A stretch of DNA of 32,000 nucleotides from Candidatus Helarchaeota ASGARD archaeon Hel_GB_B. GTDB lineage: Archaea; Asgardarchaeota; Lokiarchaeia; Helarchaeales; HEL-GB-B. Positions 4,227 to 9,104 of this stretch are shown here, one piece after another. Where the stretch lies: positions 20,327-52,326 of the forward strand of contig SUPR01000011.1 of assembly GCA_005191425.1 (NCBI GenBank). The letters run 5' to 3'. Positions within the stretch are counted from its first letter, which is position 1, and each line of letters starts with the position of its first letter. Below the pieces are notes generated by a model. That model had not been told where the DNA came from, searched no databases, and saw nothing but the letters and a program-made list of their open reading frames with translations. The position numbers and the translations under genes are program-made.

Positions 4227-4760
4227 TTAATCAGTACTGGACCCACATTTAAAACAGAATTTATCATTTCTTGAGATTGGTTCACCACAATAGGGACAAT
4301 AATAAGGATTTTCAGATTTTGCTTCACTGACTTCAATTTTTTGGTCTTCCAATTTTTTAGGATTGATAATAATATCACCAGTTTTTTTATCATAGATATA
4401 TTTTAACCTGCCTTCAGATCTTAAGTCCATTAGAACTCTGAGTAAAATGTTTTGACTAATCATGGTCTCTGAACTTAACTTATCTAGTGAAATTCTATCG
4501 TTCAATTCTTTATAAGAATTCAATACACTTTCTACTGTTTTCTTAAATCTTTTATTTTGCATATATTGATTAACTGACGCAATCCATAGGAAAAAAGCTG
4601 GGATACCAAACCAAAAGCCCCAATACTTAATTCCAATAAAAGGAATATCAAATATAATGAATACAATACTGATTAATACAAGTATTGTAAAAACTAAAGC
4701 TACACCAGCAGTATTCCAGAATTCTCTACTTTTTTCATAATACCTATCATCTTTTTTCAA
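4227..4760 (-). CDS. Membrane protein with winged-helix (PCI-like) segment and C-terminal zinc ribbon
   Basis: Two N-terminal hydrophobic helices, then 'RISLDKLSSETMISQNILLRVLMDLRSEGRLKYIYDKKTGDIII' (winged-helix pattern), then CPYCG...CFKCG. TTG start. Confidence 0.65.
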   Translation of the reverse strand: MKKDDRYYEKSREFWNTAGVALVFTILVLISIVFIIFDIPFIGIKYWGFWFGIPAFFLWIASVNQYMQNKRFKKTVESVLNSYKELNDRISLDKLSSETMISQNILLRVLMDLRSEGRLKYIYDKKTGDIIINPKKLEDQKIEVSEAKSENPYYCPYCGEPISRNDKFCFKCGSSTD

Positions 4761-5011: not shown

Positions 5012-5932
5012 TTAAATAAAAATTTTAACGAGTGGAGCAAAGAATCTTATAAAACCAACTTTCCAGCCAAGATTACTTCTAAGATCATCGATGTAATCGT
5101 CGAAATTTCTTTTTTGAAAATTAAAGACTTTTTCAGATGTATTTGTATCATACCAGTCAAGGTAAAAATGGTCATTACTAAATTTTTCCTTATTGGGAGG
5201 CGGCAAATTGAACATTTCAAATAACTTAACAATTTGATCATAATAAATAAGTTGACATTGTGTGCCGCCACCGATAATATAGGTCTTTTTAGCTTGATGG
5301 GGAGGTATTGAAACTGCATTGGATACAGCTAAGGCTACATCTAAAGGATGAATAAATTCCACTCTTTGATCCCAAGGAAGTGAATACATTCGTTTTAAGT
5401 TTTTTGGTTTAAGGTCAACATTTAGATATGGTGCTTCAGCAAATCTGAGGATTATCCACTCTAAATTAGAGTTTTTAACAATATTTTCACATTTTATTTT
5501 ATGTTCAGAATAATTATCTGTAGCAAAAACAGGGTGATCAACAGTTATTGGGGGATTTTCATTATGTGTATGGCCAAAAACAGCAACAGAAGAAGTAAAT
5601 ATAAGTCTACAATTTGGATTTAATTGCTCAATTAATTTTACTAACTGTCTAGTACCTTCAACATTAATTTCATAAGCTTTGGGATTTGTTTCAGACCAAG
5701 GAGGTAATATGAATGCTAAATGTATAATAACATCTTGATCAGGAATTAAATCCTTATACGTATTTTCATCTAATATATTTCCCCATTTTACTAAGTCGGG
5801 AAATTTATTAGCGCCCATTTGGTTATTCATAGTTTTTAGATCAAAAATGGTAATTTCATGCCCTTTTTCTAACAAATTTTTGCAAATATGTCTTCCTAGA
5901 CCGCCTAAGCCACCAGTAATTAATATTTTCAT
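5012..5932 (-). CDS. Extended SDR (NAD-dependent epimerase/dehydratase; 3-beta-hydroxysteroid dehydrogenase-like fold)
   Basis: TGGLGGLG Rossmann motif with acidic residue after beta-2 (IFD, NAD preference), IIHLA, NVEGT, FTSS and catalytic YSEHK (YxxxK). Confidence 0.85.
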   Translation of the reverse strand: MKILITGGLGGLGRHICKNLLEKGHEITIFDLKTMNNQMGANKFPDLVKWGNILDENTYKDLIPDQDVIIHLAFILPPWSETNPKAYEINVEGTRQLVKLIEQLNPNCRLIFTSSVAVFGHTHNENPPITVDHPVFATDNYSEHKIKCENIVKNSNLEWIILRFAEAPYLNVDLKPKNLKRMYSLPWDQRVEFIHPLDVALAVSNAVSIPPHQAKKTYIIGGGTQCQLIYYDQIVKLFEMFNLPPPNKEKFSNDHFYLDWYDTNTSEKVFNFQKRNFDDYIDDLRSNLGWKVGFIRFFAPLVKIFI

Positions 5933-6041
5933 AGTAGTTCACTTTTAAACAAATAAATTTTAACCAATTAATATTACCCAAAAAATTATAAAATAAATAA
6001 ATAATGCTTGAAATATCAAGGTAATATAAAAATAATAAAAT
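5933..6041. promoter_or_regulatory. Probable bidirectional promoter region between SDR and 5-alpha-reductase-like gene
   Basis: 109-nt AT-rich spacer between divergent genes with TATA-like runs. Position is the only support; individual elements cannot be resolved at this AT content. Confidence 0.3.
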
Positions 6042-6797
6042 GTGAAAATGATGATCGAATTGTTTTTTTTTTACACAATAGAAATCATGTTTTTAATTTG
6101 GGGTGGAATAATGTTTATAGTTTTATTATCTAAACCAGCTAATTATGGGAGACATGCTAAGAGTGGAATTAATTATAGGATAGCATGGGTAATTATGGAA
6201 TCAGTATCATTGTTTATGTACTTAATTTGTTATTTTATTGGTAATAGATTGTATAATGTAGTTGCTATAATATTTATGTGTTTATTTGTTGGACATTATA
6301 TTAACCGAGCTTTTATTTTTCCATTTCTTGTTAGAGGTAAAGAATTTATTCCATTTTCTATAATGATGACAGGTGTTCTTTTTAACTTAATAAATGGATA
6401 TTTACAAGGAAGATGGTTAACTTATTTTGGTCCTATTCTCGAAATTAATTGGTTATTAACGCCACAATTTTTAATAGGTATTACCATTTTTTTTATAGGA
6501 GTGATAATTAATTTGCATTCAGACCATATTCTAAGGACATTGAGAAAACACGGTGATAGAGGATATAAAATTCCTTTTGGAGGAGTTTTCAAGTGGGTAT
6601 CTTGTGGAAATTATTTGGGAGAAGTTATAGAATGGGTTGGATGGGCTATTTTGACCTGGTCTTTTTCAGGTCTAGTTTTTGCTTTTTGGGTCATGGCAAA
6701 TTTAATTCCCAGAGCGAGGTCACATCATAAATGGTATTTAGAACATTTTCCGGACTATCCAAAAGATAGAAAAGCCATTTTTCCATTTTTAATTTAG
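6042..6797 (+). CDS. 3-oxo-5-alpha-steroid 4-dehydrogenase (SRD5A1/2, DET2-like) membrane reductase
   Basis: Family motifs YGRH, WVIMES, GHYINRAF, INLHSDHILRTLR, YKIPFGG..VSCGNYLGEVIEW, NLIPRARSHHKWY and RKAIFPF; about 7 hydrophobic segments. The true start may be the in-frame ATG at 6048 or 6051. Confidence 0.9.
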   Translation: MKMMIELFFFYTIEIMFLIWGGIMFIVLLSKPANYGRHAKSGINYRIAWVIMESVSLFMYLICYFIGNRLYNVVAIIFMCLFVGHYINRAFIFPFLVRGKEFIPFSIMMTGVLFNLINGYLQGRWLTYFGPILEINWLLTPQFLIGITIFFIGVIINLHSDHILRTLRKHGDRGYKIPFGGVFKWVSCGNYLGEVIEWVGWAILTWSFSGLVFAFWVMANLIPRARSHHKWYLEHFPDYPKDRKAIFPFLI

Positions 6798-6818
6798 TTT
6801 ATTAAAAAAAAGCAAATA

Positions 6819-6825
6819 AAGGAGG
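6819..6825 (+). promoter_or_regulatory. Shine-Dalgarno motif AAGGAGG
   Basis: AAGGAGG ends 6 nt before the ATG at 6832. Confidence 0.7.
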
Positions 6826-6831
6826 ATGTAG

Positions 6832-7503
6832 ATGAAAAAAATTATATTACAAATAAAAAATGAAATTCCAAAAGAATTCATGGAGATCATTGGTTTTAAG
6901 TCGTTATTTGACTATGTAGAAAAATTAGAAGTTTTACATATTTTCAGATATGATAATTATAATTTAATAGCAATCCAAAAGTTCAAGTTTTGCTGTGATT
7001 ATAAGCCAATTGATTTATTAAAAATAAAAGAAATGGGGATTAAATATATAGAAGAACTGGCTATTATAAATGAAAATGAATATATTTGCTTTGTTAAAAC
7101 GCAAAAAGAAAATAAATTTCATGAATTAATATCAGATTTTGATGTATTATTGCATTATCCAATTATTTTTACGAAAAATTATATTAAAATATCAATAATA
7201 TCCTATGAAACACAATTAAAATCGGTCATAGATTTTTTTTCTAAGTATACTTCAAAAGAAAATTTTAAAATATTAAGCATTATGCCAATTAAAAGTAATA
7301 TAAATTCAATTTATTCGATATTATCGGCAAAGCAATTGGAAATAATGAAATATGCTGTACAAAATGGTTATTTCCAAATTCCAAGAAAAATTTCGGCTGA
7401 ACAAATAGCAAAGCACTATAATATTTCAATTTCCGCGGTCCACGAACATTTAAGAAAGGCAGAACGAAAAATTTTTGAGGTATTATTTAGAATTGAGATT
7501 TAA
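6832..7503 (+). CDS. Transcriptional regulator with C-terminal bacterio-opsin-activator-type HTH (HTH_10)
   Basis: C-terminal LSAKQLEIMKYAVQNGYFQIPRKISAEQIAKHYNISISAVHEHLRKAERKI matches the HTH_10 pattern. The N-terminal ~160 aa may be an effector domain. Confidence 0.85.
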   Translation: MKKIILQIKNEIPKEFMEIIGFKSLFDYVEKLEVLHIFRYDNYNLIAIQKFKFCCDYKPIDLLKIKEMGIKYIEELAIINENEYICFVKTQKENKFHELISDFDVLLHYPIIFTKNYIKISIISYETQLKSVIDFFSKYTSKENFKILSIMPIKSNINSIYSILSAKQLEIMKYAVQNGYFQIPRKISAEQIAKHYNISISAVHEHLRKAERKIFEVLFRIEI

Positions 7504-7535: not shown

Positions 7536-9104
7536 TTAGTAAGATTCTAAAATAAACTTATTTAAGTCAGAATAAATTTCATTTTCGTTCATAATATTAA
7601 ATATCCTTTTATTAATTGCAAACAATTTATTATATTTTTCATTGTTTTTTGCATTGGGTTTTAATTTTTCTTTAATTGTAATCATGCTTTCAATTGCATC
7701 ATCAAAATTTTTATATACCCCGGAACCTACCCCAATTAAAATAGCACAGCCAAGTGAGGTAGTTTCTTCAGTTGAAACCCTTAGTACGGGTATCCCGTAA
7801 ATATCGGCTTGTATTTGATTCCAGAACGAAGATCTAGTACCTCCCCCTGTAATTCTTATTTCATCAACCTTAATACCCATTTCGTTAAATAATTCAATAT
7901 TTTTTCTAATTTCGAAACCAACTGCTTCAAAAATTGACCTGATAATATCATACCTTGTATGGTTTAATGATAATCCAATAATAATTCCTTTAGCTAAACT
8001 ATTCCAGTAAGGAGCACCTGCACCTGCAAAATGAGGAATTAAAAGCAGCCCATTTGCTCCAAGTCTAGTATTTTTTTTGCATTCTTCATTTAGAATATCA
8101 TAAGGGTCTCTACCAGTTTTATTTGCTAATTCTTTTTCTTTTTCTCCAAAATTATCCCTAAACCACCTATATATAGCGCCAGTAGTAAAAACAGAAGCTT
8201 CAAGAATATATTTTCCGGGTATAGCATGACATGTAGTAAGAATTCTTCTTTTAGGATCACGAGTTAATTTATCAATATATGCCAAAATAAAGCTCCCAGT
8301 TCCAGTAGTAACTTTGACCCGTCCTTCTTTTATTACCCCATTTCCAACCGCTGCACATTGTTGGTCGCCGCCACCTGCTATTATCGGAGTACCTTCATTA
8401 AATCCAGTTTCATTTGCTGCTTTTTTCGAGACCTTACCAACAACTTTACTTGATGGAACAGTTTCAGGTAATTTATCAATATCAAGTTCTAATTTATCAC
8501 AAATTTCTTTACTCCATTCGAATTTAGTTATATCAAATAACATAGTCCTGGATGCATTCGACCAATCTGAGACAAAAATATTTCCTAGTTTATTAATTAA
8601 GAAATCATGGACAAGTAAAAATTTGTGTGTCTTTTTGAAAATTTCGGGTTGATTTTTTTTAATCCACATTATTTTAGGGGCAGAGAAATAAGGGTTAATC
8701 GTAAGGCCAGTAATTCTATTTATTTCTTCAAAACCAATTAGCTTTTCTATATCTTTACATTCATCAATAGTCCTTCTATCCTGCCAAATAATTGCATTTC
8801 GTAGAGGAATGCCGTCTTCAGATACGGGTACAATGGTTTCTCTCTGATTGGTAATGCTAATTCCAATTATTTGGTCTTTCGATACACCAGACTTTTTTAT
8901 TACAGCTTTTGAAGTTTCTTTAACTGATTGATACCAATCATTAGCATTTTGTTCGACCCAATTTGGATTTTCAAAGTAACTTTTATGCTCTTTATAAGCT
9001 TTGCCGAGTTCTTTCCCAGATGAATCATAAAGAATAGTCCTTAATCCGGTTGTACCTGCATCTATAACTGCAAAAATTTCCTTTTTAGCCATATTTATCA
9101 TCAA
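7536..9104 (-). CDS. FGGY-family carbohydrate kinase, glycerol kinase-like
   Basis: IDAGTT, NQRET, WQDRRT, YFSAPK, SDWSNASRTMLF, GDQQ, GTGSF, GAPYW and GGGT motifs. Confidence 0.85.
   Translation of the reverse strand: MMINMAKKEIFAVIDAGTTGLRTILYDSSGKELGKAYKEHKSYFENPNWVEQNANDWYQSVKETSKAVIKKSGVSKDQIIGISITNQRETIVPVSEDGIPLRNAIIWQDRRTIDECKDIEKLIGFEEINRITGLTINPYFSAPKIMWIKKNQPEIFKKTHKFLLVHDFLINKLGNIFVSDWSNASRTMLFDITKFEWSKEICDKLELDIDKLPETVPSSKVVGKVSKKAANETGFNEGTPIIAGGGDQQCAAVGNGVIKEGRVKVTTGTGSFILAYIDKLTRDPKRRILTTCHAIPGKYILEASVFTTGAIYRWFRDNFGEKEKELANKTGRDPYDILNEECKKNTRLGANGLLLIPHFAGAGAPYWNSLAKGIIIGLSLNHTRYDIIRSIFEAVGFEIRKNIELFNEMGIKVDEIRITGGGTRSSFWNQIQADIYGIPVLRVSTEETTSLGCAILIGVGSGVYKNFDDAIESMITIKEKLKPNAKNNEKYNKLFAINKRIFNIMNENEIYSDLNKFILESY

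Follow-up and report, generated by a model that had tools for sequence, protein, structure and literature searches.

Three neighbouring genes in a 32,000-nt stretch of DNA from Candidatus Helarchaeota archaeon Hel_GB_B (the window) probably form a unit under local regulation, in which two enzymes act on a single hydrophobic substrate, and one of them, an SRD5A-type reductase gene, was inserted recently; we put the probability of this reading at about 0.55. The intact genes, the catalytic residues, the conserved pairings, the insertion and the conserved palindrome are established by the analysis below. We infer a substrate common to both enzymes, the order of their steps, the binding of the regulator and the class of the substrate as follows. 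The NAD-type extended SDR would interconvert a hydroxyl and a carbonyl group, and the SRD5A-type membrane enzyme, with NADPH, would saturate the C=C bond in conjugation with that carbonyl, which Glu53 and Tyr86 would polarise. The HTH_10 protein would bind the palindrome at 6006-6021 and control the divergent promoters, and the insertion would have created a reductase-regulator operon beside the SDR gene.

Two enzymes and a regulator

The SDR gene occupies 5012..5932 on the minus strand, and the reductase gene (6042..6797) and the regulator gene (6832..7503) lie on the plus strand. All three open reading frames were intact where the sequence-only reading of this locus had placed them, and its spacers of 109 nt (SDR/reductase) and 34 nt (reductase/regulator) were found again when re-measured, as was its Shine-Dalgarno sequence ahead of the regulator, a GGAGG. 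Contigs from three other studies (runs X2, X3 and X4) spanned both junctions between the genes, which rules out misassembly as the source of their order. The reductase ORF encodes 251 amino acids from a GTG at 6042, with in-frame ATGs at 6048 and 6051; from 6051 it encodes 248, the length of the identical database protein P0001. The closest named homologues came from Helarchaeota and Lokiarchaeota MAGs, and the source habitats were hydrothermal-vent and marine-sediment metagenomes. Two further genes lay nearby in conserved synteny, one of the Polysacc_synt flippase type and one for an FGGY sugar kinase.

The reductase matched Steroid_dh (PF02544) at 3.4e-55 (186.6 bits against a cut-off of 22.6). 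Residues 15-251 aligned with 17-258 of PbSRD5A (7c83; 9.4e-61) and residues 27-250 with 29-257 of human SRD5A2 (7bw1; 3.5e-47). The catalytic pair that had been read from the letters was borne out by alignment, the Glu of WVIMES corresponding to E57 and the Tyr of GHYINR to Y91 of SRD5A2, and these residues (E53 and Y86 of the reductase) did not vary in 100 plus 144 homologues. The NADPH-binding residues were retained as well, with N157, D161, R168, N190, E194, R224, H229 and Y232 as the equivalents of N160, D164, R171, N193, E197, R227, H231 and Y235. The equivalents of N160, D164, R171, N193, E197, H231 and Y235 were conserved in 100 homologues, and R224, the R227 equivalent, was invariant in a 26-sequence alignment (A1). 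One replacement had been overlooked earlier: Met52 stands in place of the Gln of the published Q-E-Y motif. In human SRD5A2 this Gln (Q56) is needed, and the Q56A and Q56L mutants are inactive. Met occupied the position in all 244 prokaryotic homologues checked, including those of gut Bacteroidales (Rikenellaceae); because it was universal there, Met52 is non-discriminating, and its use as an argument against steroid reduction was dropped.

By its length and its full-length alignment to SRD5A2, the protein is a predicted SRD5A1/2-type NADPH-dependent membrane enone reductase in a comparison with PDB entries. It scored 57 bits (2.1e-14) against TECR (art-1), compared with 164.5 bits against SRD5A2. 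The idea that an SRD5A-type gene in an archaeon is something unusual did not hold: prokaryotes commonly carry the family, and on the reductase tree bacterial sequences were interleaved with the Asgard ones; a Bacteroidales reductase with an OYE-type (Oxidored_FMN) neighbour (L094) nested within the Asgard sequences. The reductase itself, belonging to a family widespread in prokaryotes, is not new.

The 306-residue SDR is, as had been read from the letters, an NAD-type extended SDR. It carries TGxxGxxG and an N-S-Y-K tetrad, and strand 2 ends in Asp31, the mark of the NAD type. T6, G7, G10, G13, N90, S114, Y141 and K145 were invariant in 43 homologues, and position 31 was D or E in 38 of these 43. 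Its identification as a 3-beta-HSD was not clearly supported, since the Pfam matches to Epimerase (8.5e-23, 81.4 bits) and 3Beta_HSD (PF01073; 3e-17, 63 bits) were both confined to residues 1-165, the Rossmann half. The 3Beta_HSD match was above its cut-off, below Epimerase, and covered model positions 1-161 of 280; in some orthologues 3Beta_HSD was the best-scoring model. Every named SDR family scored far under its cut-off, including GalE (66.3 bits against 262.3) and dTDP-glucose dehydratase (27.6 against 365), and the substrate domain matched no characterised family. The AF2 model had a pLDDT of 95.9, and a Foldseek search of it against the PDB returned generic extended SDRs only, at TM-scores of 0.72-0.79, with sugar-nucleotide SDRs as the best matches, which does not separate a sugar from a lipid substrate. 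GalE-type enzymes carry a YFN motif, the Asn of which is absent from the Asgard-enriched SDR subfamily c1 that includes the window SDR. The conserved hydrophobic C-terminal tail of the window SDR fits membrane work.

The regulator (223 amino acids) was confirmed as a one-component regulator of the HTH_10 (Bat-like) group, with its C-terminal residues 164-216 matching the HTH_10 model at 1.4e-17 (63.7 bits against a cut-off of 23.1). As a lead only, an Atlas model likened its N-terminal domain to BAT, DmsR_N and HVO_0513_N of haloarchaeal HTH_10 regulators.

Insertion of the reductase gene and its probable local control

At four loci of relatives (L114, L120, L121 and L122) the HTH_10 and SDR genes diverged from each other across 123-497 nt, and no reductase gene lay in between. 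L114 and L120 belong to the same genus as the window, and their flanking synteny was otherwise complete. The reductase was located elsewhere in L113, which is from the same genome as L114, and in G001, and both genomes kept the SDR-HTH_10 pair with the reductase unlinked. In G003, G004 and G005 the SDR was present (in G004 also with an HTH_10 neighbour) and no reductase was found. Thus the SDR has no strict need for the reductase. Among 41 relatives the SDR family occurred in 33 and the reductase in 23; a search with the reductase as query detected none in 18 of the 41, several of which are 98-100% complete. The divergent HTH_10-SDR pair without a reductase in four relatives, and the reductase inserted in the window, are new here. 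Judging from these loci, the reductase gene was recently inserted between the promoter/operator of the regulator and its coding sequence, and the arrangement is not ancestral. The insertion behind the regulator's operator is a clear example of cluster formation through relocation.

The divergent intergenic region 5933..6041 holds the predicted promoters of both flanking genes, that of the SDR directed to the left and that of the reductase to the right, and it contains a stretch nearly identical to the HTH_10-SDR spacer of L114. A genome scan and the spacers of the relatives pointed to the palindrome GCTTGAAATATCAAGG (6006..6021, plus strand) as a candidate operator. It is abutted by a TATA-box-like run, ATATAAAA (6024..6031, plus strand), which was read from the sequence and lies about 17-27 nt 5' of the possible reductase starts, suggesting a leaderless or short-leader reductase transcript. 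With the reductase directly behind the palindrome and the putative TATA box, its relocation seems to have placed it under local control. The Shine-Dalgarno GGAGG at 6821..6825 (plus strand), 6 nt ahead of the regulator ATG, fits translation of the regulator as the second gene of a reductase-regulator transcript. Between their HTH_10 and SDR genes, L121 has one and L122 has two palindromes of the form CTTG-N6-CAAG, akin to GCTTGAAATATCAAGG. In the two closest relatives the palindrome was only half-conserved, which counts against the main reading. When one mismatch was allowed, the genome scan gave 53 matches compared with 26 for the control. The scan found no wider regulon, because in the 3.54-Mb genome the site at this locus was the only one that was intergenic, had an AT-rich spacer and lay next to a TATA-like run.

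Recurrence of the pair and the nature of the substrate

An extended SDR was by far the most frequent neighbour of reductase homologues. It lay within 1.5 kb at 37 of 80 loci, from many bacterial phyla, Thermoplasmatota and Asgard, and adjoined the reductase at 12 of 19 loci of the Lokiarchaeia class. With about 17-20 Epimerase-type genes in the 3.54 Mb of the genome (G000), adjacency by chance would be expected at about 2%. On the SDR tree, adjacency to a reductase required at least five changes and was seen in three orientations; it arose independently at least five times. The sister clade of the window SDR clade includes an Anaeromyxobacter reductase-SDR operon with gaps of 9-18 nt, and a locus from a second Asgard family (L032) holds SDR, SDR, HTH_10 and reductase genes together in an order that differs from that of the window. 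An apparent SDR-reductase fusion in high-GC loci such as L047 was rejected as an artefact of ORF calling, the 779-aa ORF having an SDR domain only. Prediction of a complex between reductase and SDR gave scores of 0.00 and 0.00, which speak neither way. The expectation of a conserved arrangement stood for the SDR-reductase pairing and, across the order, for the HTH_10-SDR pairing, but not for the three-gene order of the window, a recent insertion. The view of the three genes as one regulated unit is supported by the conserved and repeatedly arisen SDR-reductase pairing, the order-wide HTH_10-SDR pairing and the L032 cluster, and because the pairing recurs in many archaea and bacteria, it is probably a genuine lipid-saturating unit.

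The genes might instead be neighbours without a shared pathway, where an older HTH_10-SDR unit acts on a soluble metabolite such as a sugar acid or a sugar nucleotide, and the reductase landed beside it by chance and works independently. The four relatives with the pair alone, the wider occurrence of the SDR family (33 against 23 of 41 relatives), the GalE, RmlB and ErythonDh types as the best named sequence and structure matches of the SDR, and the flippase-type and sugar kinase genes in conserved synteny are all compatible with this. We nevertheless consider it unlikely: the named SDR families are far under their cut-offs (GalE at 66 against 262 bits), the SDR subfamily lacks the YFN Asn and has a hydrophobic tail, it is improbable that the reductase gene came by chance to lie next to one of about 17-20 genes of this kind, precisely behind the operator, and the adjacency arose independently many times, in the sister clade as well.

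For the two-enzyme unit, we favour a substrate of the class of imported, steroid-like 3-oxo-delta-4 compounds, processed by a sterol-to-stanone/stanol logic, a tentative choice that we hold at clearly less than even odds. In vitro, progesterone is reduced through the E/Y mechanism by PbSRD5A, the closest relative with a solved structure. Neither squalene synthase (SQS_PSY) nor squalene cyclase was found in the genome, which is 93.7% complete; a steroid substrate would therefore have to be taken up from outside. Should the substrate prove to be an environmental sterol, the pair, widespread as it is, would be a candidate for microbial sterol-to-stanol hydrogenation in anoxic sediments, for which we know of no identified enzymes. 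Apart from the Nature 2025 dating paper and a preprint on N-glycosylation, a literature search for Asgard or archaeal SRD5A function yielded nothing.

An endogenous lipid other than a steroid or dolichol was also considered. Examples are isoprenoids with an allylic alcohol or aldehyde group (derivatives of geranylgeraniol or phytol, for instance), the side chain of a quinone or, as for TECR, a 2-enoyl thioester. The chemistry of the family is general for a C=C bond adjoining a carbonyl, and TECR is a distant relative. In some Asgard loci a DUF1295 paralogue lies between the SDR and the reductase, suggesting that more than one double bond is reduced. The similarity to TECR is, however, much weaker than that to SRD5A2, and the neighbourhood survey found no CoA-handling or isoprenoid genes conserved next to the pair, and we regard such a substrate as quite improbable.

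Relation to eukaryotic lipid enzymes and known systems

Eukaryotes owe steroid 5-alpha-reduction, the synthesis of dolichol and the elongation of very-long-chain fatty acids to the SRD5A family. A relevance of the locus to the origin of eukaryotic lipid enzymes had been proposed, and this agrees with a published analysis (PMC12872463), which infers that SRD5A1, SRD5A3 and TECRL stem from an Asgard-related gene and that Asgard clades branch before the eukaryotic duplications. A table in the Nature 2025 paper lists Asgard as the sister lineage of the whole eukaryotic SRD5A1/SRD5A3/TECRL family, so the Asgard gene predates that split. The probable partners of the Asgard enzyme, a dehydrogenase and a dedicated regulator, make this a concrete system for finding the original substrate.

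PMC11250103 describes how DHRSX and SRD5A3 share the work in eukaryotic dolichol synthesis: after an SDR has oxidised an alcohol, the conjugated C=C bond is saturated by an enzyme of the SRD5A family, and an SDR then re-reduces the product. By exactly this logic, the Asgard SDR could convert polyprenol, an allylic isoprenoid alcohol, to polyprenal, the reductase could saturate the alpha-isoprene, and the SDR could reduce dolichal to dolichol. The pair would then be the prokaryotic forerunner of DHRSX/SRD5A3, and steroid 5-alpha-reduction and TECR would have come from it through duplication. The alpha unit of archaeal dolichol is saturated, but Lombard (2016, PMC5088576) reported that no polyprenol reductase had been found in archaea; if this route were real, the pair would supply that enzyme for some Asgard lineages at least. 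The Asgard position as sister lineage and the fit of an endogenous substrate to the missing sterol/hopanoid synthesis genes speak for it. The reductase was, however, undetected in 18 of 41 relatives, and so patchy an occurrence speaks against an essential role. Bacteria, which are known to use unsaturated undecaprenol, commonly have the same pair. A gene that moved recently and has its own local regulator is more in keeping with a conditional than with a housekeeping function, and in the comparison with PDB entries the protein resembles SRD5A1/2 in length and in its whole-length SRD5A2 alignment. DHRSX itself is a classical and not an extended SDR. All in all, we see the dolichol route as a long shot.

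The proposed regulated unit on an imported steroid-like compound resembles the gut Bacteroidota 5AR/5BR/3-beta-HSDH cluster, which makes isoalloLCA and in which 5AR works with 3-beta-HSDH on bile acids (Sato et al. 2021, as summarised in PMC12345280). Both combine a prokaryotic SRD5A-type reductase with a dehydrogenase; in the gut cluster the dehydrogenase is of hydroxysteroid type, and the two enzymes act on the steroid A ring. In contrast to that cluster, no OYE-type 5-beta-reductase (Oxidored_FMN) was present among the seven scanned neighbours in the window, the SDR belongs to the c1 subfamily, the regulator is of the archaeal HTH_10 type, and the habitat is sediment instead of gut. Widespread operons of bacteria and Thermoplasmatota show the same two-enzyme logic, with reductases at 40-50% identity and co-directional genes 0-160 nt apart. 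Their SDR is HpnA/SdmB-like (about 210 bits, under cut-offs) and lies upstream on the same strand, whereas the window SDR is of c1 type, divergent and accompanied by its own regulator. PbSRD5A and human SRD5A2 are matched over their full length, with similar length and the catalytic Glu and Tyr and NADPH residues in the window reductase, which differs from them in carrying Met for the Q-E-Y Gln, as do the 244 prokaryotic homologues.

Three intact genes and the characters of the two enzymes

Three intact open reading frames were read at 5012-7503, in agreement with the sequence-only reading: an extended SDR of 306 aa on the minus strand (5012-5932), an SRD5A-type membrane reductase of 251 aa from a GTG on the plus strand (6042-6797), and a 223-aa HTH_10 regulator, also on the plus strand (6832-7503; Pfam HTH_10, 1.4e-17). 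The gaps of 109 nt and 34 nt and the GGAGG placed 6 nt 5' of the regulator ATG were as described there. The reductase gene has further in-frame ATGs at 6048 and 6051, and the database protein of identical sequence is 248 aa long. Contigs from three further studies spanned the gene junctions on either side of the reductase, to the SDR and to the regulator, and thus the gene order is real. The stretch occurred in hydrothermal-vent and marine-sediment metagenomes, and for each of the two enzymes the nearest named homologues were from Helarchaeota, Lokiarchaeota and Promethearchaeota MAGs.

The reductase matched Steroid_dh (Pfam, 3.4e-55) and aligned over its whole length with the structure of the bacterial enzyme PbSRD5A (7c83, 9.4e-61) and human SRD5A2 (7bw1, 3.5e-47), whereas the alignment with TECR (art-1) was far weaker (2.1e-14). 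The catalytic E57 and Y91 of SRD5A2 are kept as Glu53 and Tyr86. PMC7815742 lists the NADPH-binding residues, and all of their equivalents were present, which upholds the motifs named in the sequence-only reading. Where the published signature reads Q-E-Y, Met takes the place of Gln. All 100 prokaryotic homologues and all 144 members of the gut-Bacteroidales branch, Rikenellaceae included, had this Met, which is therefore treated as a family trait and not as counter-evidence to steroid chemistry; PbSRD5A reduces progesterone in vitro. The M-E-Y active-site variant, universal in these homologues, is new here.

The SDR matched Epimerase (8.5e-23) and 3Beta_HSD (3e-17), in each case only across residues 1-165. 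The TGxxGxxG motif was present, the N-S-Y-K tetrad was invariant in 43 homologues, and in 38 of these strand 2 ended in an acidic residue, the NAD-preferring pattern expected for the NAD-type enzyme that had been proposed. No curated family was reached: GalE gave 66 bits where 262 are required, and the scores for HpnA, OleD, ErythonDh and SdmB were far under all four cut-offs. The predicted model (pLDDT 95.9) matched generic extended SDRs only (TM 0.72-0.79, 17-21% identity), and matches to such a model do not decide between a sugar and a lipid substrate. This subfamily has few members, most of them Asgard, and its conserved hydrophobic C-terminal tail would suit membrane work.

Directly downstream of the SDR, a 177-aa protein (4227-4760, minus strand), which has hydrophobic stretches at its N terminus and a zinc ribbon at its C terminus, holds the same position in two relatives, L114 and L120. 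The gene of an FGGY kinase (7536-9104, minus strand) converges on the regulator gene, with synteny kept in these two loci; the kinase scored 393.6 bits with the xylulokinase equivalog, above the required 380.25.

Recurrent pairing of reductase and SDR

When one genome per species was scanned, at least 590 relatives of the reductase were found, spread over many bacterial phyla, Thermoplasmatota and Asgard archaea. Their commonest neighbour by far was an extended SDR, found within 1.5 kb in 37 of the best 80 of these loci. In bacteria the SDR was usually HpnA/SdmB-like and lay immediately 5' of the reductase in the same orientation. Among Lokiarchaeia-class loci, 12 of 19 had an SDR of the window's superfamily beside the reductase, in three orientations and sometimes with a DUF1295 paralogue in between. 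Since the window's genome holds ~17-20 Epimerase-type genes, chance adjacency would be ~2% by our own arithmetic. Adjacency required at least five changes on the SDR tree, where the sister of the clade with the window's SDR includes an Anaeromyxobacter operon with the SDR 9-18 nt after the reductase. The counts and the repeated adjacency give good support to a joint function of SRD5A-type reductases and extended SDRs, and the pairing suspected from this one locus thus recurs in bacteria and archaea.

Several of these loci had further features. Two Anaeromyxobacteraceae loci (L068 and L085) carried, besides the SDR of the window's subfamily 9-18 nt after the reductase, an HpnA-like SDR ~1.9 kb off, so that both partner types occur in one locus. 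A GPP34-cytochrome P450 fusion (678 aa) formed a three-gene cluster with an HpnA/SdmB-like SDR and an SRD5A-type reductase at L056:2829-6720 and in L053, L066, L093 and L095; these MAGs were assigned to different phyla (Silicimonas, Latescibacterota, Bryobacterales, Alphaproteobacteria) with SDRs 82-87% identical, reflecting either recent transfer or binning error. In one Lokiarchaeia genus (L026:8808-9716; also L022, L025 and L028), a ~300-aa DUF1295 paralogue (PF06966, 7e-52) adjoined the reductase and separated it from the SDR wherever an SDR was present, giving two related membrane reductases per cluster. Just upstream of another reductase, L029:8826-10376 and a matching L030 gene encode a 516-aa protein with remote SDR similarity (28% over ~350 aa), a long extension and no Pfam family over cut-off; in the relative G002, a truncated protein encoded beside the reductase (L016:5907-6713) matched the C-terminal part of this 516-aa protein.

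The regulator and the position of the reductase

Four relatives had the HTH_10 gene and the SDR orthologue as divergent neighbours, 123-497 nt apart and without a reductase between them: L114 (a JGI Helarchaeota MAG), L120 (same-genus G001), L121 (G002) and L122 (G004). Flanking synteny with the window was otherwise complete in L114 and L120, and both genomes had the reductase at an unlinked site (L113 and contig C166, respectively). A search with the window reductase found none in G003, G004 and G005. The simplest reading of these gene orders is that the reductase gene entered the HTH_10-SDR spacer once, in the lineage of the window. The unlinked copy at L113:6001-7374, the closest relative, lies between genes for ribosomal protein L15e and a UbiE-type methyltransferase.

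A palindrome, GCTTGAAATATCAAGG, lies at 6006-6021, abutting a TATA-like run, with the reductase start 21-30 nt downstream; the genome has no other intergenic site of this kind. Related CTTG-N6-CAAG palindromes were present in the L121 and L122 spacers, and half-sites remain in those of L114 and L120. The regulator now lies 3' of the reductase with its own Shine-Dalgarno sequence. Other Lokiarchaeia had further HTH_10-SDR pairs, and in a second Asgard family (L032) two SDRs, HTH_10 and the reductase stood together in a different order. Because HTH_10-SDR pairs occur without the reductase, which probably entered behind the palindrome, the regulator is probably in the first place the SDR's, and the reductase would have been brought under the same control. 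Of the regulated three-gene module first proposed, the HTH_10-SDR pair is thus kept in relatives, but the gene order seen here probably arose by an insertion in one lineage. We put the probability that SDR, reductase and regulator form one functional unit at about 55%.

SRD5A-type genes were already annotated in Asgard archaea, and a published analysis that made use of them (PMC12872463 and its supplement) gives Asgard as sister to the family of SRD5A1, SRD5A3 and TECRL. Our reductase tree, of prokaryotes only and with weak deep nodes, had two separate Asgard groups with bacteria interleaved. New here are the Asgard-enriched SDR subfamily with an HTH_10 regulator and the evidence for a probable recent reductase insertion behind a conserved putative operator.

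Candidate substrates

Neither a squalene/phytoene synthase nor a squalene cyclase was found in the window's genome (3.54 Mb, 93.7% complete), and a polycyclic substrate would therefore need import. The closest characterised enzymes act on steroids or bile acids. If the three genes are one unit, an imported steroid-like substrate would have roughly one chance in three. Dolichol-type saturation by the pair is improbable by comparison: the eukaryotic DHRSX/SRD5A3 route follows the same logic (PMC11250103), and as of 2016 no polyprenol reductase had been found in archaea (PMC5088576), but a housekeeping role of this kind fits poorly with 18 of 41 relatives having no detected reductase, several of them 98-100% complete, and with the pair being common in bacteria too.

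With regard to the steroid-like substrate, one Bacteroidales locus (L094:3163-5918) has, in this order, an acyl-ACP thioesterase, an SRD5A-type reductase and, as neighbour of the latter, an OYE-family flavin oxidoreductase. Its layout resembles that of the gut 5AR/5BR genes, and its reductase nested within the Asgard part of the tree.
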